Below, piece after piece: positions 13,127-34,379 of a DNA stretch of 37,965 nt. The notes below the pieces were generated by a model, which was not told the origin of the DNA, did not search any database, and was given only the letters and a program-made list of their open reading frames with translations. A program made the translations under genes and the position numbers. Source of the stretch: Bigelowiella natans CCMP2755 (Eukaryota; Protista; Cercozoa); NCBI GenBank assembly GCA_000320545.1, contig ADNK01000420.1, positions 1 through 37,965 of the forward strand. The letters run 5' to 3'. The stretch's first letter is position 1. Each line of letters begins with the position of its first letter.

Positions 13127-13364
13127 CATTTACGTATATCATGTATCTCACCAAAAATGGCAGATGTATTCGCTCATCATCATCTTCTTCATCATCATCA
13201 TCATCATCATCATCCGCCCTCTCGTCGTCATCATCGCAGAGAACATAGAGATAGAGAGAGGTAGCGTCATGAATCATTCGCACATCGTTCTTGAGTTGTC
13301 CGAAACTTACTACCAGAAGCAGAAGAGGAGGAGGAGGAAGGAGAAGTATCAGTTGAAGAAGAAG

Positions 13365-13396
<32 letters not shown>

Positions 13397-13976
13397 GTAG
13401 TTGCAGAGGCATCGCCGTTGTGAGCTTTCTTTTGGAAATTCTCCATATTCTTTGAGATATCCTTCGCTGACAACGATGTGCCGGTGGATGATGCCTCTAC
13501 TGCTGCTGGTGCTGCTGCTGCTGATAGTGTCACTTTCTGTGCTATACCCCCCTCTATTCCTACTGTTGCATCATCAGTCTCCTGTTTCCCCGAAGACACA
13601 TCATCGGTGTGCTCAAAGTTGTCATTGGAAGAAGAAGAAGAAGAAGAAGAAGAAGAAGAAGAAGAAGAAAGCTTCGAGTTCGTCGTCACTTTGTTTTCCG
13701 TGACTGTAGTTGTCTTGCGGGCAGATTCCCCTGCTTTTTGTATTGATACAGCAGACACACGACGCACTCACGCACTCACACAAATATACAATTTGAATAA
13801 ATATCGAATTCGAAACCCATATTATGATTTCATCCATAGCCTGCATTTGATCAACTAGGCTGACAATCTTCCTCCCCCCCCCTCAACGATATACCTCTAT
13901 CACCAGCTCTATCACCCTGATGGATGGGGGTGTTGAAGACAATTCGGAAACAGCAATAACCAACAAACACTCAAGT

Positions 13977-14016
<40 letters not shown>

Positions 14017-15259
14017 CATGTATATTATCATATTGATAGAAAATGATGAAACATCGCTGATATACTACTACAAAAGAAAGGGTTGTCATTGCAAATGTTG
14101 TGATGTTATGTACACACAGTGTTACGAGAGACTTTTGCGGATGATCCACCCTCTGCCTTCCCCTCTTTTTCCATTCCCTTCGCCCCCACGTCCCCATCCT
14201 CGTTTATCTCAGTCTTAGTTTTCTTCTTCCTCGACGTCTCAGGGGGGGGAACGCTCTCTATTCCCTGATACAAATGATGTGGCAAAGCGTGGTTTTTAGC
14301 GAAAATCTCCTCTGCTTTATCTCACTGATCTCGAAACAATCGATGGGAAGCATCTGGAACCCTGCACGGCACGGCGCGCGTAAACCATGCAAGAACCATT
14401 CAGCATTCGCATCCATCTTCAAGTCGAGAGAACACCGACAATTGCTTTCTATACAATCATTCACCATACCGAACAGTCGTCCCGACTGTCACGCATAGAT
14501 TGCATGCCACGATATATGATATATGCACGCACTGAGCAGCAGTACCCCGGACAACTTGAACCCTTCGCCGTACGCCTTTCCGTTTGATAGATCATTCCAG
14601 TACCTAGCAGCAATTATTCCACGTCAGAGATGTTGCTTTTCAGTTGAACGATGTGCCATCGGAACGGAGGAGCTCCTTTACGCAGAAGGATCTAGGTTTG
14701 GATTCGTCATCGCTGAGAATGAGAACTAGACCGCGACGCATTTGCGCTGTGCCGCCGCCGCCGTACCAATGGCCACTTTTTGAGCAACTTGCGGTGTTTT
14801 CAGTGCTGCTGCTACATCTCAGGAGAGATCCTCTAGTTTGGCGTGATTTGGAAGGGGTAGGCCAAAGCATCATATCGAGGAGGAGGAGGAGGAGGAGGAG
14901 GAGGAGGAGGAGGAGGGAGAACAATAATACCCGTGAGTTTGTTTGATGACATCTGCTGCCTTGGAAGGTGGCTCGAGTTCTGTTGTTAATGCAGGAGAGT
15001 AGTCAAGAACCACAACACCATCAGTATTGTGTAGCACGGAAGTCAAAGATCTACTTGCATGCATGTGTGTGCATGTGTGCATGTGTGCGTGTGTTTGTGT
15101 GTGTTTTCAGGAGGTCGGTGTTGATCCCAGAGGCACTGCTGCTCGCACTACGAAATAGAAAGTTGCCGAAGAATGTATTAGGATATTATTTGTCCAGGAC
15201 TACAACTACTTACGTTTCTTCTCCAACTCATTCCTTTTCTTCCCCTCTGGAATCTGAAA

Positions 15260-15303
<44 letters not shown>

Positions 15304-15630
15304 ACATACGATATAGCAATTATCCAAGAAATTCTTCCATACAGAGAATACCATTGCCTCTGGAAGATTGCTTCGCTGGAGGATAATCATCATCATCGAT
15401 GCGTTTTCGAAATTCAATGTTCAGGACAATGCATCGGTTTTTTAGTACTAGTTTGTTCATTATCATCATCATCATCATCATCATTATTATCGGTTGCAGC
15501 AGAAGCAGCAATAGTAAAGGCAATTGTTCGTAGAACTTTGTAATTTATGAGCCAATCCATGAGTTTCGCTATGAGCCCCGGTCGGTGTTTTTCGAGGCTG
15601 TTTTAGTAGTAGCAGGAACAGATCAGTCAA

Positions 15631-15682
<52 letters not shown>

Positions 15683-16092
15683 GAACAAGTGATGACATAT
15701 CTCCCTCCTCCTACTCCACCTCCTCCTACTCCACCTCCTCCTCCTCCTCCTCATCCAACCTGTTCGCATCGTGGATGTTCTCCGCATCAGGAGCAGTCTT
15801 ATCGATGGCCACCAGCTTGTAGTCAAGCTGTGTGCCGCGACATATTTAGTTAGTTAGTGTGTATGTGTGAGTGTGTGTGTGTGTGTGTGTGTGTCTGCCT
15901 TGGGGGGAGGTGGAGGGGGAGGGGGAAGGGGGGGCATACTCAAAATTCGTATTGTTCTATTTGAAGAGTGATACGCAACGAAAACGATACAAACACTTGA
16001 TGATGTTGTTGCTGTTCTTGAACAAATTATCGAGGTGTATTATCAACGCATATCATCCACATGATTACCATTTCCACCACGCCACCGACGTT

Positions 16093-16124
<32 letters not shown>

Positions 16125-16554
16125 TATCTTCACCATTACCTCTCCTTGATCTATCACAGAAATCATTCCTATTATCTTCACTGCCACTACAGCACCCGTA
16201 CCGAGGACATGCCCTCTATTTACCCACAATCGCGGAGAACAACAAATAGAGTTATCGGAATCGAGAAAAACAACGAGAAGAAACAGAATATGGCAGACTC
16301 CGTTCCCTCTCTCTTTACAATCGATGTTTTCAACGCTTAAACATCAGATTTTTTTGACGCAGCTCACAAAGAATCGCTATTATATAGTAGTAGTACCCAA
16401 TCTCCAATACGTCGAGGGGATCTCCATCTCCAAAGCGACCCTTATCGTCTTGTAGGTCATCTGCCTCCCATGTTTGAGGCAAGAAACCATAGTTGAAAAA
16501 GGGAATGCCGTACCTGTGCGTGGAAATGATGTAAGTGAAAGGGAAAGGAACATT

Positions 16555-16610
<56 letters not shown>

Positions 16611-16672
16611 AGACATCGACTATTCGTGGTCATTTGCAACCGATAATCGAATGGTTCTGTGAGCGACGGCGG

Positions 16673-16703
<31 letters not shown>

Positions 16704-16981
16704 AATGACGATGACGATGACGATAATGCTAGTGGTGGAGGTGATAGCTATGGAAGAAGTGAGTTAAACGTACAGGTAATTCCTGGGGAGATTGTGCTTC
16801 TGATCATGAGCAATCGGGTTGAATGCCTGTGATTATTGTTGCTGCTGATGATGATGATGATGATGCATAGGAGGAGGAGAAGAGAGGAAAACATCGGTCG
16901 TATCCATCAAATGGCCGACATTGCAAAACATATTATCTGTATATATAATTCCTCCGTTGTTGGAGAAGGAAAAGAGCAATG

Positions 16982-17022
<41 letters not shown>

Positions 17023-17598
17023 GAGAATAATACTATACCAAATCCACGTGCTACATTTAGTATGTATATATATAGGCTGAATATATTGTTTTCACGTACG
17101 ATTTTCTTCTGCATCTCAAGCTTATCCGTACGGCCCATCGGTATCTTTGCACCAAGTAACGACAACAACAACAACAACAACAACAATTACAAACACTCTC
17201 AAATGAAATAGAATAAAGAGGGGGGGGGGCAGGGGGAAACAAGAAAAACATGAATGGTCGGTTGGTTACGATTAGTTGCAGGAATGGGTACTTTGTTGAT
17301 TATGGCCTCTTTCTTCTTCTTCTTCTTCTTCTTCTTCTTCTTCTTCTTTTATCACTACTACTACTACTACTACTACCACCATTACCACCAGATGTTAAAT
17401 TGTCCTCAAACAGCAAGCAACACACCTCTACCAACATATTGCACGAAATGATAGTGCCGCCATCTTCTTCGGAGCCTGCTCCTCCACTGCTGCCTCGTCT
17501 CTCTTCTTTGAGGTTGAGAGGAATATCGTGCCATGGGGATATCTTGTTACCGCTGATGATAAAGTCATTCGTTAATCAAGGGGCAAGGACAGATATAT

Positions 17599-17640
<42 letters not shown>

Positions 17641-18530
17641 AAGTATACGAATGCAAAAGATGACAGGTTTTTACAATAATGCTCATAATATCTTCTGTAT
17701 ATTTAATTTCAAAAAAACCGGAGGAGTAGCAGCAGCTTCCTTTTCATGTATTGCAATAGTACTACTGGTACTTGCATTTCTTCTTCGTCTTCCTCTTCTT
17801 CTTCTTCTTCCTCTTTTCCTCCTTCTTCTTTCTTATTCAATACCTTCGGTCGTTGAAATGTAACATCCAATCTGTTGTTGTTCAGTGTGATGACGTCCAA
17901 GGTAATGCAATCAAATAGTCAGTACTGCTGATGGTGACGATTGTGTACTACGAAAACGATTATGATAACGATGACACTGGCACGTTCAGTTTTTCCAATA
18001 AATTTCGAAATGATAAATTCAGTAACCGAAGATCTAAATCTATATGCTTCTTGCACCAAACATCTGATCTACTCATCAACTAATCACTTGCATCCATAAA
18101 AAGTGAGGAATGATGGAAAGACGATGCACTTCATTATCCTCCTCCTCCTCCTCCTTCTTCTTCTTTCACTCATCATAGTTGTTGTGCATTCTCTATTTGG
18201 TCAGTGTCAGCATGGCATCATAAAGCAAGTGATGATATAACAATCGTACTATGTTCATAAATAACCATACCCAGCTTGCCGAACGTGCCACTTTCCTCTA
18301 TATTGCTCGTAGCAGCAGCTAGCTTGGGAGCCCCGAGCATGCGGGAGAATGGTACCCATTCTGGTAAGTTCTGAGCAAGAAAGCAAACTATCAATACGAG
18401 GAAGAAGAAGAAGACAAAGGAGTAGTGGTAGTAGTTGATTTAAATTCAGTACGAATGCATACTTAATATAATGAGCTACAGGATATTTAAATAAATGTAC
18501 ATGGATTCTATACATATAATACATGTGCAC

Positions 18531-18574
<44 letters not shown>

Positions 18575-20040
18575 AACCGGATTCTGATAATACGCTATCA
18601 TGATGTTCCAGCCTTCCTCAACCATAAAACTGCAGCATTGCATGTATGTGGCGGATGTTGGGAGGAGGAGGAGGAGGAGGAGGAGGAGGAGGAGGAGGAG
18701 GAGGAGGAAACGACAACACATAAGTACAACAACAAAAACAATAATAATATTATTATTATTAATGATAATAATAATAATGATAACGAGACTAATTACTGTT
18801 GATTCTTTCTTGCCTGTGACATTACCATCAATACTCCATCTACCACTATTTATCACCTCCGAAATTATCTTCAACCATCATCGTCATCATCATCATCACC
18901 TTCGCATCATTATCCTCTTTAACTAGCGGCAGCTATTTTTTTTTTTCTTCTTCTTCTTCTTCTTCTTATTATTATTATCATCATCATTACTATCCCAATC
19001 ATCGTTGCTGCATTGATTCTCACCCAGATGGGACGCATGAAAGCGTATCCTCCCAATCATTCGGAATTCCTCCAACACACTCCTGAGAATAGAGAATCGA
19101 TAATCGTGATCAACAAACCGCACAAAGAGCACACAAAAGCAGCACTGGCAATAACTGTTAAGTCCAACCTTCACCCCCTTCCGAGCCATCGCTCGCATTT
19201 TTGAGCCGGATATTGACAAGAAATCCTTCAAATACAAAACAAACACACACACACACACACACGCGTGTACATATATTAGTAAACATTTTACAATGCGTTT
19301 TGTAGGCAGGTTGTACGATGTGCATTGGAAAAACAAATGCAAAGAGCAGAACGGATGATGCATCATCCACGAGCAGTACCTTTTTCCGTGAAGAGTCTCT
19401 CTTCTTCATTTTCATATCTTTCGTATCATAATACACCTGCGGTGAAGAATCAAAGGCTCATGTTCATCCGCACATGCTTGTGATAAGGCACATCATCGAC
19501 CGACAGGGCTGGTGACATCGGCAGCAGCAACAATGTAATAATATCGAGGACACCTTGCCAAAGGACAGAATTTGCATGTCACCCATGCCAGGACTTGTTT
19601 GCAGCACGTATCTAAGAAGAAGAAGAAGAAGAAGAAGAAAAGAGGAGATAACACCAAAAACAAAGTAAGGAAGAGTAAGATGATTCCAGAAGAAGAAAAA
19701 AGATGAAAAGGAGATAAAAGGGAGGAGAAACCCTGCATTCAAGATCAGAATCGGATTTAAGTAAGAGCCCCCCCCCCCCCCCCCCCTTCCCTTTTCATCA
19801 CCCGATCGGGGCCTGGTCATATAAATTTGGGTGCCCCAAAACCAACTCTACAGGATAACACAAGCGAGCTATGATTCTAGTTGACGTGTCTGTCATCTGA
19901 CGTTGCTCCAGCATTCCTCCTCGACTTGGCATGCCACTGTACTTCTGTGGGACCTGCATACATCATCGGCGAAGGCCATATTGCCAGCACCGTTGAGGCC
20001 GGTAGCATCCCCTTTTCTATCACCTAACGATACCCGGTAG

Positions 20041-20090
<50 letters not shown>

Positions 20091-20286
20091 GGTTTGATAC
20101 AGTGACTCTACTACTTTTACTACTACTGCTACTACCTGCACATGTTGTTTAATTCTCACATCCAAGGGCACATCGTCAGCCTTGCTCCAACCCCCCAAGG
20201 GTGATAGCCATAGCGTTGGTTTTCGGAATCCTTGCTTCTTTAGCCGATTTCCGGCCTCTTGCATCAAGTGGGCATGTCTGAATATG

Positions 20287-20318
<32 letters not shown>

Positions 20319-20339
20319 GGGGGGGGGGGGGGGGGATGC

Positions 20340-20374
<35 letters not shown>

Positions 20375-21526
20375 TGTTGTTGTTGTTGTAGCAGTATTAG
20401 TAGCAGTATATTCGTAAGAACGTGCCTGTATGCTCGGCAGATACTAAAAACACATTTTAGAAAATGAAGTTAGGCTGTAAGTACCCCGCATGAGTAGGAT
20501 TTCGAGTTTGGAATGCATATACAGCATCAGCGTTTCGTTGTTTGAATTTGCCTCGTAGCTCTTCCGGCGTGAGACGATATTTATCAAGCCCATCGTCATA
20601 CCTATTAGCAGTAGTAGTAGTAAGTAGTAGTAGTAAGTAGTAGTAGAAGTAGTAGTAGTAAGTAGTAGTAGTAGTGTGGTAGTAGTAATAGCACGTTACA
20701 TCCAAGAACAATTTAAAATAAAACAGTGATTTTCGAAACCAATCCGAAAGCACCGACGAGACTCCCAAGAGTAAACTATCGTCACGTTTTGATTTGTAGC
20801 TTAGTAGCCGTAGTATTTTGAGTAACATCCCGCCTCTCCCACCCTGACCTTATTCGTTCGAGCAGCTCGATTTCTCCTCCAAGAAGCCAATTGCCAGCAT
20901 GCACCCACTTCTGCATGTATCTGTCAAAGAGGAGGAAAAAGAAGAAGAAGGGAGAAGGGGGGTACAATGTCAAAGTTGGATGCACACGAAGCGTAGGCCA
21001 TCGAAGTTGTAGTATCACGATGATGATATACCGACAAGCATGATAATGATGATGATGATGATGATAATGATTACGATTCTTACTGTTATTGTTATTGTTA
21101 ATGTTAATGTTATTGTTATTACGGATGATTCTTGTCCCATCCCCCGAACACACGCGCAATCATTTCGTCCTTTCGAAATCTAATGAATCAATAAATCCTT
21201 TGTGTCACCGAGGGCATTGGGGGAAATGTGTGTGTGTGTGTGGTGCTTTTGTTGATGATAATGATCATGGAGTGATATGATGTGTCTATTCGAAATAACA
21301 CAAAGGAATTAAGAATATCGTTTCTCTCGTTTGTATATGTTGAAATACTCGTAGATTTCAGGATCTGTAAGTACAGCGATGACCTTTCCTGATAATTGGC
21401 CAATGATCGATGACACATAATAACAATAATAACATCGTGAAAGGTGAATTGCCCTGCTACTCTATATCACCATCGTCTTCGTCGTCATCATCATCATGAT
21501 TATTTTCAACAAAAGAGAAAGGCACA

Positions 21527-21563
<37 letters not shown>

Positions 21564-23122
21564 GTCGGCGCGACAAGGGCGATTTTCTTCTCCTTCGATT
21601 TGATTATTGCATCTTTTGTGTTGTCATTGATTGGGAGAACGATAGGAATCGGCATGTTCACTCGCAGTCCCATTTGCAGCTCAGTAGAGTAGTCATCAAA
21701 ATTGGTCTGTTGAAGAAAGAGAAGAAGAAGAAGAAGAAGAAGAAGAAGAAGAAGAAGATGATGATGAAAAGGAAATATAAATATCAGAAAACAAGGAAGA
21801 ATGAAATGCCTCCTAGCACATTCCAAGGGGAGAACATCCCACAGTACTGAGCACACTGAAATGTTTGTTTTCTATGAATTTCACGCGAGGTAGCCATTGC
21901 TCCCTACTCAGCCGTTGTTCCACAGCATTGCATATGCTAGTAACAATGGATTAACCACCACCATCATCATATTTCTAAAGTCTCCAGATCCTCTACACCG
22001 CACCTGCGTGGTGAGGGCGTTCTTATTGCCCGTCAAGTCGTTTGGATCTAATAGCAGAGAGTTGAAATGCAGAGTCTGTAACAAGGCCCCCTCGCGCATA
22101 AACCCTGTCAGCGGGGACGCCCACCCCTCACCTTATCACCACATCAAGAGAAAGGAGAGAGAGAAGACAGAGAAGACCAGAAAGACAAAAGGCGAGGACG
22201 AGAGCAGAACCAACATTGTATTTGTATTAGAGATGTAACGAATGAACTTGATTGGCATCGTATCTGAAAAGAAGACCCCCACTTGCAATCTACAGGAGAC
22301 CACAACTTACGGAATACACCGATGTATCTCGCTTCTACAACAAGCAGGACAGTTTGCCGTGCCGACGAGGCGCTTAACGTCGGTGTGTAGGGAACTATCA
22401 TTCGTCGTCTCCTTGCTACATGTGCACGATGAGCAAATCTCCATATTTTCAAAGATAGAGGTCAAGAAGAAGAGGTACTGCTAATACGGCTCGTTCTGAC
22501 ACCACAGCGCGTACTCAAAAGACTACACTAGCAGATACAATGCTACTACCGATGCACTGAACCCAGTTGACATCCACATTCGTAAGCAGCACTTTGGGGA
22601 ACTTCGCAGCTGCGGCTCGTGAGTAGGTTGAAAACTGCGGGGTTTTCCAGTTGAAGCCGCCGTCTGGAGGGCTCTGCAGCGGATACCACGATGGGACCTT
22701 TGCACGCCGCGGAACAACACGACAATATGACGATATCAAGCAACAATGACAAAGTCGTCATAAGAGGATGCTGGTAGTGGTGATATGGTTGCAGGTTACG
22801 GTGTATTTTTTGTCTCAAGACATCAGCAATCACAGGGTGGGGAGAGACTGCCAACGGTGCCAAATCATCCCCATCAGGACTTTTGGAACTACACGGTTCT
22901 ACTGCATGATACAGTGCCCATATGTTGTTGTTGTGAGAAGTTGCTTACGTTATAACCAACAGATACCCCACGGCTGAGAAGCGCCTGGTTACATGCAAAA
23001 GCATCACAGAAAGCCGCAACTTTATCATCGCCATTATCATCATCTATCATGATCATCGTCGTCATATCAACGGCTCTGGTGCTAGTCTTTAACTGCCCCG
23101 CAGGGTATGTTTGTGTGTTTGC

Positions 23123-23161
<39 letters not shown>

Positions 23162-23299
23162 GGTGATTACAAAGATGGTGGTGGTGGTGATGATGATAAT
23201 ACATAAAGGACGTCATCATGATCATCATATATTCCAAACCTTTCCTATCTGTATTGCAGCCTGCTCTGCTGCCTTATCATCCTACAACAGTGGTGGTGA

Positions 23300-23337
<38 letters not shown>

Positions 23338-23674
23338 CTATATCAGTGGTAGTAGCAGTAGAAGCAGTAGTAGTGGTAGTAGCAGCCGTGTTGTCTTATT
23401 TATATAATTTAACGTTCATCTGTGACACATCCTCCTCCTCCGCCGCCTCCCCCAAGATCCACGGGTTAGTTAGTGTCGACGGGATTATTGGGCATAACCT
23501 TGGCAGTGAGCATGATTGATATTTCTGGATGTGTTGGGGATTCGTATGGCTCTATCTCACCGCTACCAGTGTTTCCGATGATACCGAGTGATGACGACGA
23601 CGATGGTGATGATGATGATGATGGTACAGGACCCAAATCTACTTGAACCTTAAAAAATTAATAGAAACAGTGCG

Positions 23675-23712
<38 letters not shown>

Positions 23713-23841
23713 GAGGATGTGGCGTTATCCGTACTATACACACGGCTTGCTTGTCGCCATCGTACCTACCTCGAGAAAAGGAAGGCCTCTAACGTTGTGC
23801 GACCTGCCAAAATCCAAGCCAAGATTATTCGTTAAAAAGAG

Positions 23842-23876
<35 letters not shown>

Positions 23877-26038
23877 AGCACTCGGGCGATACGATACACA
23901 GTCGAGAGGCATTGCAATGTTGAGAAGTGTGGGAATAACACGCAGTATATTCTATCAGAACAAACAGGATCATCAACTCCCAATCTGACATGAAGAATTC
24001 ACATCTATCTCGTGCAACAACTCTGCTGCTGCTGCTATATACTGATTACCTTCGAATCCAATCCCTTGCAGCTTGCTTTGGGATGTTGAGGTTGGCGAGT
24101 ACAACTGTACCCGCATCAGTTAATACTGCGCAAAGCTCACCAGCTAAAGGAACCAAAAAACAACGAAACCGTCAAGGACTTGCGGGGGATTCATTCTGAG
24201 CATCAGGAATGAAGCGCGAACAACACCGATGACTTCTGGTACATCATTTGCCATGCTCGCGCGACGATAAATAGCCACCAAAAACAGGGAACGATGAGGA
24301 AGCCAAATAGCATATTATGGGAGGAAGGATAAGGAAAGGGGTGGAGGAATGAGTATTAGTGGTAGTAGCAGCAGCAGCAGTAATAGTAGTAGTATTAGGA
24401 GGCAGGGGCACAGTTGTAAGCACAACCTCTCCTCGTCTTCTCATTGATGGTTGATGGCGAAGATCCCAAATCAGAGTTGATGCCCTGTGATAGTAGAGAG
24501 TGCTCCAGGCGGTAGACGTTCAACCGATGCTTGCTCAGAATCCATTCCTCCAGCGCTAAAGTAATAAACAAATGTAGAAGAAGAAGAAGAAGAAGAAGAA
24601 GAGGACAGTGCCAGAAGGGTTTGACAAGATCATAGACATAAGCTAGTAATAGAAATATATACAGGGTGATACATATGATTTATGTTTGAATTATAAATTA
24701 CCTAACCCAACTTTATGCGCGAAGGCTTCATCGGAGGATACTATCATCACGGTAATGCCTGATACAACATTTGTAACCATTTTCACGTGGAAAATAGAAG
24801 AAGCGAAATGTCCAATCTATTGTCCTTCTTCGCGGCAAAATCTCGGCCATATCCTGTTACTCTCTCAGCGAGTCAAGGATGTGAGGAATTTCATATCACT
24901 ATTACGATTACTCAAGGTAATCACTTTATTCGTAACAAAACGGTGAAAATGACTAAAAATATTTTCTTAAATATCATAGAAGTATCGATGATTTTGGTGA
25001 ATGGAATCGTCATCATCGTTGTTCTCCACTCCTCGTTGCGGGAAAAGAACTAAATACTTGAACATCTTACTCAGTCATTCACCTTTCTGGGCTATGTACG
25101 CAAATCTTTTTTCACGTGACACACCGTCGTTGTGCCCGATTGCCACCTGCTCCACAAAGACGTGATGATGACGAAAACACAATAGTGACGTCATCATAAT
25201 CACACGGTGCTAATGCACGTAAGATTGTCGCAAGAGGGGAGAAAGCAGAGTAGCACGGTGCAAAGGGAGTGGGATCAATGATAAAGGGAAAGAGGATGAG
25301 CTCGAAAAGAGAATCTGCTTCTTTTGCCAGTCATACCGGTGTTGGCAGCGGTCGTTCCTGATTCTCCTTTGCGAATTCGTACAGGTAGTTTTCCGCTTTA
25401 TGAATACTATTACTGATAGCGTTTCTTAGGCTGTGCGCATCGAAGGACCCGATTCGGCTAACAACTGAGTGATCGGTTAAAGTCACTCCCCCACCCGTCC
25501 CACCGGTATCACTGCTTTCCGTCTTTGTCGTAGATGTGCGCACAAGCGGGGAGGGGGAGGAGGAGGAGGGCGCGTCGCCATCGCTGTTGGAATTGTCATC
25601 GCCATGGAGAGCATGGTTTTGTGATTTGTGGGTGGTGATGGATGATATAGCATCGAAGAGACCAGTACTCTTGCCTCCTACTCCTTCTCCTCCCTGAGCA
25701 TCATCTTCTTTCTTCGCAGTGAAGAGGAGGTAGCACAACACCCCGCATATGGCAAGTGCCAGGAGTAGCTTTGTAAGAAAAGAGAAGCCTAAAGATTGAG
25801 AGCAAGGGAAGGGGGGGAGGGAATTCTCATTGGAAGCAGTAAGACGCCTAATTCTCAAAAATACCTGATCTTCTCGCTTTGCCCCCATGAGATTTAGCCT
25901 TAGCGGGAAGAAGAGGGAGGAGGAGGGGGGAGCTTAGATTTGTAGCCACGGGAATAGTGAGAAGTATATAATACGTACCTCGCCCTCTTCCATCGAGCGC
26001 AGACTGGCAACATCGACAGATCTGAGAAAGAGACTCAT
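12402..26038 (-). CDS. Signal-anchored fusion: degenerate APS kinase + ATP sulfurylase + inorganic pyrophosphatase + acidic/Ser-rich tail (43 exons, ~1384 aa)
   Basis: 43 GT-AG exons with mutually consistent phases sum to 4155 nt (ATG 26038, stop TAG 12404-12402). ATPS motifs: [68 protein letters not shown]. PPase motifs: [60 protein letters not shown]. The APSK-like region aligns with PAPS synthase kinase domains. Tail exons (14264-12402) are less certain than the catalytic ones. Confidence 0.9.
13311..13730 (-). repeat. Coding (TCT)n microsatellites giving poly-Ser tracts in the C-terminal tail exon
   Basis: (GAA)n at ~13354-13393 and ~13628-13669 on + strand lie inside the 420-nt exon 13730-13311. 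Confidence 0.7.
14546..17871 (-). other. Family I soluble inorganic pyrophosphatase domain (eukaryotic type)
   Basis: The conserved active-site positions are present: E..K.E in [13 protein letters not shown] in PRNY, YG, DxDPxD, D....D.K, YK. Confidence 0.95.
18271..22697 (-). other. ATP sulfurylase domain (PAPSS/plant-type lineage)
   Basis: QTRN and HAGH catalytic motifs lie in exons 20601-20485 and 20277-20136. The exon expected to carry the GRD motif is not recognisable in 19612-19901. Confidence 0.95.
19768..19786. repeat. 19-nt poly-C run within the unresolved ATPS interval
   Basis: Read directly; a similar 18-nt poly-G run is at 20318-20335. Confidence 0.9.
22949..25146 (-). other. 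Degenerate (pseudo) APS kinase domain, exons 4-11
   Basis: [140 protein letters not shown]...[12 protein letters not shown]. It is colinear with APSK but lacks the P-loop, DGD and lid motifs. Confidence 0.85.
25715..25768 (-). other. Signal anchor / signal peptide h-region (residues 39-56) of the fusion protein
   Basis: [18 protein letters not shown] is preceded by basic GKARRS..TK and followed by acidic [11 protein letters not shown]. Exons 26038-25979, 25898-25865 and 25788-25337 join in phase. Confidence 0.8.
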
Positions 26039-26765
26039 TGTGAATTGTTTGCCATCAAGTGTAGCATTCCCGCGATGGACGTCAATACTTGTTTTTCGGG
26101 GGACTAGAAAGGCTTCATTGGTTTGGAGTAATTACTCTCTCTCTCTACCACCTCTTCTTCTGCGAGGCTCTCTGCATTGAATGGCCTGGAGCAGCTCCAA
26201 GGAGCGTGTTTCTTCACTGCTGGGTTTTGAGGCCTACAGGCAGGCGACGGGGTCGATCGAGCAGCAGCAGCCACTGAAATGGAAACCGGCGGTCACTTTC
26301 GAAGAGAATACGTTTTACGTCTATTTTTTGTGCGGAATATATCTAAGATATCACTGACCAACCTCACTTGTGTGATGATCAAAACAGTAGCGCGGAAGAG
26401 CGACGGGAGGCTGTGGATCAGTGACCAACTTCTTCTCGAGCAGGACACTGATAAAAAATGAACAGGCGATTTTTGTCATATATGGTGTTGGTTTTCGTAT
26501 GACGACAATAAAATTTCGTGTCGTCATATAAATTAGAACGGAGTTCGCATTCTTCGTACACCACATCCAATCCGCGGGAAATGGCGGAGAGCAGCCGCGG
26601 TGAGCCTGATCTTGAATCAATCCCTAGGCTTTTCAAATCTTGCATGCTTTCGCCCCTCGTCGCGTTCCCATGTCATTTTTGTGCCTCCTGGCCTAGGCAA
26701 CGTGGGACAGATTTCAGTATCAACATCCACCTAGAAATCAATCTCAACGGCATCCTAACAAAAAA
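26039..26765. promoter_or_regulatory. Divergent promoter region between the ATPS fusion gene and NUP85
   Basis: Head-to-head ATGs at 26038 (-) and 26766 (+), 727 bp apart. Confidence 0.6.
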
Positions 26766-29217
26766 ATGTCTGCAATTGTTATGGTATCAGTAGACCAAAA
26801 GGAGGAGTTGGAGGAGGGGCAAATAAATGACCAAAGGAGAGATCCCGAAATTTTCAAAACAAGCGCTCCCTTACACGCAACTTGGGGCTATGGAAACGAG
26901 ATTTTGTTGCATGGTAAGATACAGGACCGCAGCAATTCGAGAAGAAGGAAGGCGCGCGGAAACGGCAGCATATATCCCAGAAAACTAGAACGTGAGGTTG
27001 GTCAGAGTTGTAAAGTTGAAGGACTTCGGCCACTTCTCCTCGGATGGCACAGCATATTTTCAGACACCCAGAAAAGTCGTAGGCATGCAGACCAAAAGAA
27101 AATGGGCTTGAATAGCATCGCTGAGAGCAGTAGAAATTATCGTTCTGAACTTCAGAGCTTCATCGAGAAACGTTGCAGATTAGATAATAGGCCGGGTGGT
27201 GACGAAGAAAAGGCTCAAATAATCTTGGCGAATATACACATAATATGGCATCTCATCGAAATTTTCTATCTCGATGTGCATAGCAACGTCACTGGCCAAA
27301 TGCTGGGCTGGTTGCATCAGTCATCACCTGAGCAAGATGACGACTTTGATGGTGATATGAAAGAAGGCGACGCTAACTGGTGGCGGCGGGTCGGAGAAAA
27401 GGTTCTTCAAGGGAGAATACCAGCTGCAGTTGACATGCTGATGAATTATGCAGCTTTAGAGAGCATGATGGAAGAGAGGGACGAGCTCATTCAGCTCTTA
27501 GAGAGTAACCCGTGTATGGTAGGTGATAATAGAGACACTGCCGATTTCATCGAGGATTATAATGCATGGAAAAAGGCTGTTGAATCATGGATGAGGAAGC
27601 AGGCCGAACACCTAGATGGCGGGATCTTAGAAAAGATGGTGGACATCGCTGAAATCCTTCTTGGAGACCCGCATACCCTTTACTCTTACTCTACAAACGA
27701 TCACGAATTCTTCGTCGCTCACTTATTATATCAAACGCCGGAAATTGGGCGTGATGACTTACAGGTGGTGGCCAGCAACTGCTATTCTGTGGAGTACAAG
27801 CGGACATACGGGGAGGAGGGAAACCAGGAAGAGCAGGGGCTGCTACAGAAATGCATCATCGAGATCATCCGAGGAAACCTGTACGACGCAATAATGATTT
27901 GCTTGCAGATCTTTGACTCGCCATGGTTCATCGCCCACCTCGTAGATTTATTGCATCATGCAGGCTGCTTAAGGGAGACGCTTCCATTCGATGATGATAA
28001 GAGCATCAGGCAGTTTTGCCTCTTGGAGTATGGCAGGGGACTGATCAGCGATCCTTCTATTTGGCACCTGAGCCTTGCATACTTCTCCGAGTGTGGGGTA
28101 AGAGGCCGCGCACACGTGAGAGGGCTGCTAGAGTCCCAGCCGATCCCGTCCATTCGTGTGGCGAATAAGCTCATGAACCTCTGTCGCAAGTACAAGATCC
28201 CCCAGGATCTCATGACCATTATCATCAACCGTATGGGGTTCAGGGCAATGAAGCAAGGGAGGTTGGGAGAGGCGATTATGTGGTTCGCCAGGTCAGAGGA
28301 GGAGGAGCTACTATTGAGGCTTGCAACTCGCTCAGCCGTGCAGATGTTAAGGAGGAGGGAGGCCGGAGATGAGGGTCTTTATAATTCTCCAATATCGATT
28401 GCCATGCCGTCTGATGAGAAAAGCCCTGTTGGATCTGCTGTCGTGCTCGTGGAGACCGTGCGCGATTTCAGTAAACTCCGAGCTTCGATTGAAACACTGG
28501 TGGAAACATTGCTGCAGAAGGAAGCTAAGGACAAGATTCAGATGGGCAACAAGAACAATTCCCAACCTAGGAGTGATAGTGAGCAGAGAGGTGCAATCGT
28601 TAAGAAACTTGCAAAATTACAGGCAGAGGCTATATCTTCTACGTTGAAGCTACTCAAAAAGGGGGTTGGCAGCAATGAATGCCAACTTCTAATTCTATTC
28701 GAGTGTGCGCGCATCGTTGACTATGGGAAGTTCCATAACATAAGCATTGTATCTTCTCCAAAGGATATCATGACTCTCATGTCGCACCTGGAAGGGCTCT
28801 CCTCAAAGCCTAATGTGAATGCCAAAAACGGCAAATGTGAAGATGATAAGGTCGTTGGATCATCATCAATCTGACCTAGTGTTTTACCTTGCATCGTTGA
28901 TTCCTCCTTACTTCATTCAGCAGTCATACTTCACCCTTACAATCTGATCGTTGGTTCCTCTGTATCTTAGAAATTTGCGGCCATGAGAATGGCCTTATCC
29001 AAAGGAGTTGCCAGGGCTGTTGTTCTGGACGCGAAGAGGCGCAGAAACGAGCCCGGTGGAGAGGAGAATCATCAGGTAAGGCGCAAACTGGCTGCCGCCA
29101 AAATGTTCGTTTTCCCGAAATCAAAGTAACCTCTCATGACTCTTGTCTTTTCTACAGCCACGAAGAATCATCATGGCACCAGACTTGCAAAAGTTTGCAA
29201 ATTTAGATCGGATATGA
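26766..29217 (+). CDS. NUP85: Nucleoporin Nup85 (Y-complex); exons 26766-28850, 28971-29075, 29158-29217
   Basis: Family-typical motifs IIWHLIEIFYL, NWWRRVGEKVLQGRIPAAVDML, EILLGD, FFVAHLLYQTP, PWFIAHLVDLLHHAG, RQFCLLEYGRGLISDPSIWHLSLAYFSECG. The spliced exon 2 supplies the terminal MRMALSKGVARA helix. Confidence 0.9.
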
Positions 29218-31759: not shown

Positions 31760-33143
31760 ATGTCAAATAAGCGCGAGAGATATGTCGTTCGGCTACTGAT
31801 GCTGGGGGACTCTGGTGCCGGCAAGTCGACGTTGTTGCTGCGGTATGTTCAGGTATGGTTCATCAGGCCCATTGCTATCGTTATTTTCCTGTGTAGAATT
31901 ATTTATCATGCATTCTTTCACAAACAGGATGGGTTTGAGAGCGAACACATGCCCACAATTGGCATAGATTTTCGGCTTAAAAATATCGAATTGGACGGAA
32001 AGAAGATCAAAGTGCAGGTGTGGGACACAGCCGGGCAGGAACGCTTCCGGTAAAGCTTTGCTACAAGTCAAAAGAACTATTCTGGATGATCTTATGTACT
32101 CATGTGTTGATACCGGCACTTTGTTCGTGCTGTATGTATTTATCTAGAGATAACCAATCTAAAATCAAATCATTTACATATGTTCTTCCCTGGGCTCCTC
32201 CATTCTCTGCAAAATGACTCTCCTGTCACATAGAACCATCACACACAGTAAGTAAAATGAGTAAAGAAATCGCCCCACTTTTATTTGCATTTAGTTGAAA
32301 TATTGAATAATTGTTACGTGGTGTTCTAATTGTTCTTCAGACTACTACAGAGGGGCACATGGAATACTGCTACTTTATGACGTGACAAAGCAGCCAACAT
32401 TTCTCAGTAAGCACACAACAACTTCACAAATCTCTCAATACTCAATTGCTTTGATACTGCTACGCACTCATTCACTCACCAATAACTCCATCCAACACTT
32501 CGCTGAGAGAGTATTACCGTCGGCATTCCATTGATGCGTATGAGTGACCTCGCCAGAAGTGGTTGAATTAGTTGCAAAATCATTGATCCTCAGATATTCG
32601 AAAATGGATCCAAGATGTCAGAGCATACGCGGAGCAGAACGTAATATAACCGGAAGAATACAATACTGCCAATGATTATATGGGAGGGAATAGAATATGC
32701 TCGTAACATTCTCAAGGATTTATGATGATAATTATTGTGTCGCGAGCACTCGCCCATTGGCATTGTTACAGGACAAAATTATCAGTATTTTCGTTTTCCT
32801 TGAGGAGTGCAGGATCAAGATTCTACACTTATATTTCACCATTCTGTACACATTGCAACGATGAGGAAGAAGTTATGGACGGCCATGACAAAACTCGTTG
32901 GCGTTCAGTAGACTGTTATGTTACATGATACAAAACGACGATTTAAATCGTCTCTTTGTTGGGAGAATATCTAATGTTGTTGTCTTTCAACCTTAGGTCA
33001 ATCTTGTGCTGATAGGGAACAAGTGTGACTTAATTCAGAAGAAGGTTGTAATTGTAGCAGTGGTAGTAATATTGGCCTCAAAGCCCGACCTTCTCTATAT
33101 TAGTTATATAAATAATATATAAATGATGTATAAATAATATATG

Positions 33144-33195
<52 letters not shown>

Positions 33196-33251
33196 TAAAG
33201 GCATGTATTATTATGTAAAAATTTTATATTAAATTCTATATTTAATATATA

Positions 33252-33299
<48 letters not shown>

Positions 33300-33315
33300 A
33301 TATTATTTAGACATA

Positions 33316-33354
<39 letters not shown>

Positions 33355-33955
33355 AAAGGTTGTATCCACGGAGCAAGCTGAGGAGTTAGCAAACGAGTAA
33401 ATTCTCCTTATCATCTATCATCATAATAATGTCGAAAGAGTGGGCAAAAAATCCACACAGCTCAATCTAAAACTCATTTTGTTCTCTCGATGTTTGGTGT
33501 TGTGTAAATCCCCTTTAGATACGGGATCCAATTCTTTGAAACCTCGGCTAAGGTCTTTCGAGTGAAGATGACTCATAAAATAACTCATAGAGAATACTAC
33601 CACCAACGATTGATAATCTACTTTGGGAGTGATTGATTCCTACCCTCTCCCTCCACCACTTTCAACCTAAAAAACCACCATGCAGCGCTGATTCTGCTCG
33701 ATATCGATTCTCAGGAAGACACGAATGTGACGAAGGCATTTGATTCTCTCATTAAGACTATATGCAATCGAAAGTTTAAAGGTAGTTACGATATTTCGGA
33801 AGAGGATACGCTTGGAATAGCACCAAAAACGACAAAACTGAATTACGTTTGTGTTCTCCACTTGTTTTGTAGACAAGGCTATGTTGGAGTCAAAAAATGG
33901 CGGAAGCGCACCCCTCTCGAAACCACGGGGCATGAAGGAAAAAAAGTGTTGCTGA
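31760..33955 (+). CDS. RAB8: Rab8/RabE/Sec4-like small GTPase, 10 exons
   Basis: [55 protein letters not shown] and C-terminal KKCC prenylation motif (stop 33953-33955). Includes a 14-nt microexon at 32234-32247. Assignment within the Rab1/Rab8 group rests on TIGIDF. Confidence 0.88.
33095..33350. repeat. AT-rich (TA)n and (GT)n intron tract in RAB8 intron 6
   Basis: Direct tandem repeats between donor ~33045 and acceptor ~33358. Confidence 0.9.
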
Positions 33956-34379
33956 AAAATACGGCAGTTTTTCAGCTTCTCTGATTGCCACTTACGTCCT
34001 TACACTATGATTGCGTCGGATGCGGAGAATTGTTTCATATCCAAGCGCGATTGCATATGTTCTGTGCGTGCTGTGGTCCCAAACAAATATCAGCGTGCAA
34101 ATTATTCTCATTTGCTCTTCTGAATTAACAAGAGCTAATTCCGATACCTTGTGGTTATGTTATTCATCTGCAACAATAAATTTACACACACATGCTGTTA
34201 CGGGCTAGAGCACCCCGCGGTGTCAAGTGATGCAGTGTATACGCATTGCAAATTATTGCAGCTTTCAATAATTACAGAGAAAACAACGACCGCTGACACT
34301 TTCTGATCGACGTTATGATTATTGGGCGGACTGCCGTTAGTAAGGCTAAATAAATGGCTACATGGACGTACATCTACAG

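Follow-up and report, generated by a model that had tools for sequence, protein, structure and literature searches.

A probable kinase-dead APS kinase domain at the N-terminus of a putatively membrane-anchored ATP sulfurylase fusion in Bigelowiella natans

What does an adenosine 5'-phosphosulfate (APS) kinase domain do in a sulfate-activating enzyme once its catalytic motifs are gone? The question is raised by a minus-strand gene in the 37,965 nucleotides of contig ADNK01000420.1 of the chlorarachniophyte Bigelowiella natans CCMP2755 (assembly GCA_000320545.1), the stretch of DNA called the window below. The gene encodes APS kinase (APSK), ATP sulfurylase (ATPS) and inorganic pyrophosphatase (PPase) domains in the order APSK-ATPS-PPase on a single chain, and is thus a triple fusion. 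We propose, with a probability of roughly 0.55, that the protein would be an anchored, dimeric ATP sulfurylase making APS in the secretory pathway, the dead kinase serving as dimer scaffold and the kinase step being left to an active sister.

The gene model has 40 exons and 1279 residues as assembled, with every intron GT..AG and the frame open throughout the 1279 codons. From 26177 to 22550 the exons follow joints in contigs of three assembled public runs (X1, X2 and X5), taken as RNA, that is as presumed transcript spliced at GT-AG ends; the 3' half follows GT-AG ends and homology to P0002 from Amorphochlora amoebiformis, the transcriptome protein P0001 and a fourth kinase-dead copy, P0008. 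One 3661-nt contig of X5 spans the start, the kinase and the first sulfurylase exons. An ATG at 26038 was rejected as the gene start, as it falls within an intron, the true start being 26177. A. amoebiformis is the closest named relative (85% identity across one sulfurylase exon). PF01583, PF14306, PF01747 and PF00719 are all matched in the three orthologues; when single exons were scanned with Pfam, one sulfurylase exon matched and none of the four kinase exons tried, and a homology search from one kinase exon gave seven candidates, none of which scored.

Judging from a profile of 74 active APSK domains, the kinase domain is homologous to APSK far beyond chance (85.7 bits, E 1e-22; active domains reach 275-307 bits within the training set). 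Likewise, PF01583 scores the three orthologues at 29-42 bits (cut-off 21.1) vs 218 for an active sister, and P0002 matches the Penicillium chrysogenum APSK 1d6j at E 8e-16. The catalytic motifs are replaced. Alignment reads SSDEAFAHK (24738-24712) in exon 24758-24702 where the P-loop GxSGxGK[ST]T is expected, LEHSL (24508-24494) in place of LDGDN and NIP in place of ISP (NLNIP, 24093-24079), all as the initial annotation had stated; YESPTHPE is read at 23546-23523. The span given there for the domain, 23499..25146, placed the motifs correctly but ended too early, since the domain continues to about 22949. Three more proteins, P0002, P0001 and P0008, show the same losses with different replacement residues. 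The P-loop GxSGxGK[ST] is missing in all four copies, the LDGD(N) site reads LEHSL, IESGH, LELGH and VDDST, and the lid (R-D-x-K-G-x-Y and G-F-T-G) is replaced or deleted throughout. The window protein keeps 23 of the 51 positions that are at least 90% conserved in the 74 active domains; 15 of them are retained by no dead copy, including the P-loop G/G/G/K/T, the G-D-N of LDGDN and both phosphosulfate arginines, whereas the 17 kept in all four are scaffold residues. On a set of 46 conserved kinase positions, 20, 25, 20 and 24 are kept in the window protein, P0002, P0001 and P0008, respectively.

The loss extends to the second substrate. Functional residues named in PMC4373884 are the P-loop, LDGD, the lid and the APS ligands D480, R483, F492, R497, K562 and F576. 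We mapped them by offset from LDGD and the lid arginine, a mapping validated by the active sisters, in which the counted positions match the expected residues. Equivalents of D480, R483, R497, R559 and F576 are absent from every dead copy and those of F492 and K562 from at least three; the adenine-stacking phenylalanines are gone as well. By alignment, then, the pocket for APS or 3'-phosphoadenosine 5'-phosphosulfate (PAPS) is lost along with the ATP site, and the domain is almost certainly catalytically dead, in agreement with its first description as a pseudokinase.

That the kinase nevertheless works, whether by way of another exon or by a non-canonical mechanism, is hardly credible. Joints 25083/24758 and 24702/24555 are present in contigs of all three assembled runs, so that no P-loop exon lies hidden between 25083 and 24555, where the initial annotation had proposed to look for one; a fourth, raw-read run, X21, contributed just two reads. 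The losses, moreover, are distributed across four separate exons and recur in four proteins. Across 26100-23300, a six-frame scan did return a single G-x4-GK[ST] match, GEGVGGKS, about 140 residues before the domain in a low-complexity stem. We rejected this Walker-A-like string as the missing P-loop: it is attributed to chance because a match of this kind arises in 36 of 300 codon shuffles, and it is absent from P0001 and P0002. Run X2 uses an alternative acceptor at 24235 (24235-24144, minus strand) that adds 92 nt and shifts the frame into a premature stop, and a low-depth piece of X1 keeps part of that intron; alternative splicing here is possibly unproductive.

A domain that no longer phosphorylates might still sense its ligand, as in the allosteric PAPS/APS site of Penicillium chrysogenum ATP sulfurylase (PMC3734648). 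The retained fold and a basic RR pair left in helix alpha-2 would suit such a role. The retained pair, however, corresponds to R502/R503 and not to the sulfate-binding arginines, and allosteric sensing is unsupported, the APS site having lost its residues just as completely as the ATP site. The Penicillium allosteric domain keeps its APS-site residues, in keeping with the 114 bits at which an active APSK query scores it; the window domain has lost them, and the dead P0002 domain, at 60 bits, is the more decayed of the two. We regard a sensor as quite improbable.

A structural role agrees better with what is retained. The AlphaFold2 model of P0002 has a five-strand APSK core, mostly at 75-90 in predicted local distance difference test (pLDDT), with a disordered lid, and the best Foldseek matches of the whole model are human PAPSS1. 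For residues 120-346 of P0002 a homodimer is predicted at a score of 0.83 vs 0.00 for the best of three controls, with contact agreement of at least 77% and partner pLDDT of at least 73 in the dimer runs; the mark for this score was reached by 21/30 microbial and 17/29 eukaryotic homodimers and by 0/23 and 0/30 monomers. The predicted interface is centred on helix alpha-2, as in CysC, and E200, G222, E234, R237, R238 and E241 of P0002, shared with active enzymes, are kept there. Nine of 26 interface positions are identical across the four copies vs 19 of 152 others (P 0.008, a value inflated by the conservation that buried positions show anyway). The dead domain is quite likely structural rather than ligand-sensing. 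Of the roles first suggested for it, oligomerisation or folding is upheld, by prediction only (dimer model and interface conservation), and allosteric sensing, given the lost APS-site residues, is not. In three of the dead copies a helix ending (L/I)HKA is followed by a P-x-P-V motif; it lies outside the confident dimer contacts.

Where did the dead copies come from? We built a sulfurylase-domain tree (34 rows, 421 columns, quick IQ-TREE; P0012, P0015, P0017, P0021, P0025 and P0055 left out), in which the four dead and seven active chlorarachniophyte copies are united with 99% support, as are, within that clade, the active ones on their own. Because the dead copies group with seven active chlorarachniophyte paralogues, the dead domain would have arisen by duplication. 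Duplication before these genera split, followed by kinase loss, is the simplest reading of the tree, and P0008 may represent a separate loss. Active chlorarachniophyte triple fusions with all motifs intact include B. natans Bigna1/36346 and 51478 and those of Lotharella globosa, Partenskyella and others; P0052 and P0053 are two active Bigelowiella natans triple-fusion paralogues, 85-91% identical in kinase and sulfurylase. The sulfurylase of P0002 scores 396 bits to PAPSS1 vs 87-113 to fungal sulfurylases (87 to 1i2d). Fungal ATPS is described as a distant relative with an APSK-like domain at its C-terminus (PMC2275785, PMC4220642). Because the fungal enzymes form a distant class, the dead domain appears independent of the fungal case; the independent N-terminal origin put forward initially is borne out by its nesting with active chlorarachniophyte triple fusions, which have a sulfurylase of the animal/plant/stramenopile type. 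Complementary decay, with a dead sulfurylase in the active sisters, was rejected, since their sulfurylase motifs are intact. The initial annotation had mentioned neither these active paralogues nor two features described below, the membrane anchor at the N-terminus and the pyrophosphatase decay of two orthologues.

Further dead copies may exist beyond those found. A metagenome scan with P0002 gave 147 pattern matches and no relative; a scan with three dead copies gave 80 loci, 25 of them with a kinase domain, and none of these had both P-loop and DGD replaced. Their P-loops are mostly canonical; two loci ended before the P-loop, and three PAPS synthases (L028, L032 and L037) carry a GLSCxGK variant, with Cys for Gly.

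The dead domain might also be a relic in slow decay, selected for nothing more than its folding between the stem and the sulfurylase, much like the pyrophosphatase of two orthologues, which keeps only 25 (P0002) and 27 (P0001) of 42 conserved positions. Identity among the dead copies is indeed 33-46% vs 67-85% among the active sisters. However, the whole domain is in frame in all four copies, its conservation is skewed towards the predicted dimer face and the three closest copies have new residues in common. Plant sulfurylases of this class function without the domain (PMC4220642), therefore deletion was possible, yet it did not occur. We consider a mere relic unlikely.

In contrast to the kinase, the sulfurylase is well preserved: the window protein, P0002, P0001 and P0008 keep 98, 106, 107 and 103 of 108 conserved positions. 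Nine of the ten misses of the window protein fall in a single GRDPAG-containing segment missing from the assembly; all three orthologues have this segment, and the exons flanking it would join in frame. Two RNA contigs run 2256 nt past 22550, some 98-128 nt over the model if they end no more than 30 nt from the start of a (TTC)n repeat. An assembly gap is likely because GRDPAG occurs in all three orthologues, the intron holds a poly-G run and the RNA contigs have extra length. Two further proteins from Logan contigs (P0105 and P0106, 929-931 residues) are fusions of a major facilitator superfamily (MFS) transporter (PF07690) with PUA/ATP sulfurylase and are without kinase or pyrophosphatase; their sulfurylase is of the same class and branches with haptophyte-group sulfurylases. 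Such a fusion could couple transport of sulfate or APS to its activation.

Of its 42 conserved positions, the pyrophosphatase retains 40 in the window protein and 39 in P0008. By the counts given above, that of P0002 and P0001 is degenerate, a second pseudoenzyme domain; the losses there include acidic and basic catalytic residues. This decay suggests, therefore, that the paralogue is being pared down to its sulfurylase. It also brings in another fate for APS, namely use by an APS reductase (APR) or another APS-using acceptor or, with a dead pyrophosphatase, a reverse reaction regenerating ATP from APS and pyrophosphate (PPi). Both forward-pulling domains are degenerate in P0002 and P0001 beside a nearly complete sulfurylase, and the reverse sulfurylase reaction is the favoured one (PMC3734648). 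Against this, the pyrophosphatase is intact in the window protein and P0008, the signal anchor differs from a plastid presequence, and B. natans is listed with separate plastid ATPS and APR (PMC2275785 Table 1). Such a fate seems improbable.

Where would the APS be made? By hydropathy and charge counts the N-terminus has the short basic tail, the one hydrophobic helix and the low-complexity stem of a type II protein: the helix reaches 2.61 on the Kyte-Doolittle scale over 17 residues, five K/R precede and three follow it, and the P0002 AlphaFold2 model has a helix at 41-58. Under the positive-inside rule this charge bias gives a type II orientation. A hydrophobic helix stands ahead of the kinase in 50 of 58 Met-initiated fusions of more than 850 residues (near-duplicates included) and in 0/8 animal PAPS synthases, and K/R are commoner before than after it in 37/52. 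A possible signature of the endoplasmic reticulum (ER) lumen was seen in N-x-S/T sequons. The window protein has one vs 9.6 expected, a count as low being found in 0/200 shuffles; six active sisters have 3 vs 21.8 and six diatom-group proteins 7 vs 27.1 (groups labelled from source names where given, else from the tree). Seven animal enzymes show no depletion (20 vs 15.8), and neither the group of the window protein nor the sisters are short of the reversed motif. The pattern suggests that the enzyme domains are exposed to the ER lumen, and it is rather probable that the protein is of type II, with its catalytic domains on the lumenal side in the ER or Golgi. An oxidising lumen would be a fitting environment for the cysteine pairs that are conserved in the stems of haptophyte and diatom fusions; a cysteine-rich insertion lies within the APSK domain of P0017, P0018 and P0025 of the diplonemid group.

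Together, the data are consistent with the following sequence of steps. A duplicated APSK-ATPS-PPase copy whose kinase lost both substrate sites would likely make APS and not PAPS. Its dead domain is predicted to act as a dimerisation scaffold via helix alpha-2, in the canonical homodimer, and its enzyme domains would sit in the ER/Golgi lumen as parts of a type II membrane protein. There the sulfurylase would convert ATP and sulfate into APS, with PPi removed, in this species, by the protein's own pyrophosphatase. Phosphorylation to PAPS would be left to an active sister paralogue, presumed to be encoded in the same genome and to act in the same compartment, and the duplicate would add capacity to the thermodynamically uphill first step. 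That APS is handed to the sister kinase is, in our judgement, somewhat better than an even bet.

Several observations weigh against this reading, beside the inflated interface test. The P0008 model is without an anchor. For sequons, the other three dead copies fall short of significant depletion (5 vs 6.2, 3 vs 6.0 and 3 vs 2.5), and haptophytes give no clear signal (8 vs 11.0). In several groups D-x-S/T, too, runs somewhat low, and the proteins compared are related to one another. Solved APSK dimers exist, so the predicted dimer, folded for P0002 and not for the window protein, may be model memory. The sulfurylase tree supports the grouping of the four dead copies at just 78; a second tree unites three of them at 91, with P0008 attached at 33. 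If, moreover, the absence of GRDPAG were real, the sulfurylase of this copy would be crippled too.

The partner in the dimer might also be the sister itself. In such a heterodimer the dead domain would pair with the kinase of an active sister, channelling extra APS to one working site or tuning PAPS through asymmetry. The interface residues common to active enzymes are retained in P0002, both paralogue types carry the anchor, and human PAPSS1/PAPSS2 heterodimers with reduced APS inhibition have been reported (PMC3734648). However, the dimer model covers the homodimer alone, and the N-terminal tails of the dead copy and the active sisters are unrelated, possibly placing them in different compartments. 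We hold pairing with the sister to be doubtful, though the least so of the alternatives, and retain the homodimeric scaffold. The first 23 residues of the tail are 22/23 identical to those of Amorphochlora, unlike the sisters', which points to a paralogue-specific sorting or regulatory signal. Combining these elements, chlorarachniophyte lumenal sulfate activation by membrane-anchored enzymes could be split by duplication into a full PAPS synthase and an APS-only sulfurylase, reduced one domain after another, whose dead kinase docks on the sister's live kinase, with the conserved cytosolic tail setting where or when. This extension is tentative, and rather unlikely as a whole; if true, PAPS would be supplied within the lumen under the control of a pseudoenzyme, whereas animals and plants make it in the cytosol and rely on a transporter.

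Table 1. Features of the fusion gene, in coordinates of the window.
Feature	Coordinates	Strand	Basis
Whole gene: signal anchor, stem, pseudo-APSK, PUA/ATP sulfurylase, pyrophosphatase, low-complexity tail	13267..26177	-	RNA-contig joints and homology
N-terminal tail, 41 residues, likely cytosolic	25769..26177	-	RNA joints; 22/23 first residues identical to P0002
Hydrophobic signal-anchor helix, predicted type II (N-terminus cytosolic)	25721..25768	-	Hydropathy, charge counts, AlphaFold2 model of P0002
Chance Walker-A look-alike GEGVGGKS in stem	25667..25690	-	Absent from P0001 and P0002; 36/300 shuffles
Helix ending (L/I)HKA, in three kinase-dead copies only	25382..25444	-	Motif in window protein, P0001 and P0002, no other stored protein; helix 125-147 in AlphaFold2 model
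Probable pseudo-APS-kinase domain; exons 25146-25083, 24758-24702, 24555-24427, 24143-24050, 23803-23770, 23648-23499, 23281-23240, 22984-22949	22949..25146	-	RNA joints, profile, alignment
Replaced P-loop, SSDEAFAHK for GxSGxGK[ST]T, in exon 24758-24702	24712..24738	-	Alignment
Replaced LDGDN and lost APS-binding Arg and Phe (equivalents of Mycobacterium tuberculosis (Mtb) D480, R483, F492)	24458..24508	-	Alignment
Helix alpha-2 (EKTRRAGE), conserved, core of predicted dimer face	24136..24442	-	Alignment, predicted dimer
Lid turned into Ser/Gly low-complexity segment; R559, K562, F576 equivalents lost	23547..23636	-	Alignment; pLDDT <50 at P0002 residues 290-306
PUA and ATP sulfurylase domains; QTRNP, HAGH intact	18578..22697	-	98/108 conserved positions kept
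Intron with poly-G run, where about 29 codons including GRDPAG are missing from the window	19612..19901	-	No GRDP in six frames
Family I inorganic pyrophosphatase domain	14546..17552	-	40/42 conserved positions kept
Ser/Thr/Glu/Lys-rich C-terminal tail, exons 14264-14126 and 13730-13267	13267..14264	-	Homology-based model; P0001 tail similar

The fusion gene lies head to head with an intron-free Nup85 nucleoporin gene (PF07575, 257 bits; 26766-28874, plus strand) about 590 bp away, and an RNA piece (26291-26400) maps between the two. A multi-exon gene at about 31780-34000 (plus strand) presumably encodes a Rab-type GTPase, by its motifs. A 322-codon open frame at 7712-8680 (plus strand) gave no Pfam match at E 0.01; by eye, a pair of hydrophobic segments, a stretch resembling a coiled coil and a PDZ-like terminus can be made out.

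A search of the full-text literature, with Bradley 2009, Bromke 2013 and the PMC2275785 supplements outside its scope, found no published kinase-dead N-terminal APSK, no such paralogue and no lumenal anchor pattern; PMC11468063 mentions neither PAPS nor sulfurylase. Live sister copies and graded decay of a second domain make this family a natural experiment on the non-catalytic role of the kinase domain in PAPS synthase. The dead copies still pass Pfam and are automatically annotated as PAPS synthase, therefore metabolic reconstructions overcount PAPS capacity. The pattern of anchor and sequons challenges the labelling as 'cytosolic or plastid' used by PMC2275785 and PMC4220642, and it bears on the sulfate supply for sulfated glycans of marine algae.

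Triple fusions are known from diatoms, haptophytes and oomycetes (PMC2275785; PMC4220642 Fig. 3C), and share with the window protein the domain order, sulfurylase class, Pfam content and N-terminal anchor. They are described in these sources as kinase-functional and cytosolic or plastidial, whereas here the kinase appears dead, the dead paralogue has active counterparts within its algal group and the pyrophosphatase of two orthologues is degenerate too. Human PAPSS1/2 (1x6v), the best match in both sequence and fold, likewise has an N-terminal APSK fold on the same sulfurylase class; its kinase is active and, unlike the window protein, it resides in cytosol and nucleus without anchor or pyrophosphatase. 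A mirror case is offered by the APS kinases of Entamoeba histolytica and Thiobacillus denitrificans (bioRxiv 10.64898/2026.04.02.716029): half of an ATPS/APSK fusion is kept as a non-catalytic oligomerising or regulatory partner, but there the sulfurylase is dead and the kinase active.

A kinase-dead APSK is otherwise known from the C-terminus of fungal sulfurylases; by its sequence relationships the present one is of separate origin, at the N-terminus of an enzyme of the PAPS-synthase type. In Penicillium chrysogenum ATP sulfurylase (1i2d, 1m8p) a kinase-dead APSK fold is likewise fused to an active sulfurylase, where it binds PAPS and regulates the enzyme (PMC3734648); it is C-terminal in a hexameric, fungal-type protein, whereas the window domain is N-terminal. 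Saccharomyces cerevisiae Met3, too, has an APSK-like domain that is non-catalytic and probably structural, keeping the subunits associated (PMC4220642). That domain is C-terminal, in a hexamer of the distant sulfurylase class, while that of the window protein is N-terminal, predicted dimeric and membrane-anchored; the Met3 domain is missed by an active APSK query at E 10, whereas the dead P0002 domain still matches APSK at E 8e-16. Because it is more decayed than the Penicillium domain and less so than that of yeast, we infer from the level of decay that the dead domain functions in the manner of yeast's structural domain rather than as a sensor of the Penicillium type, while being a member of neither group.

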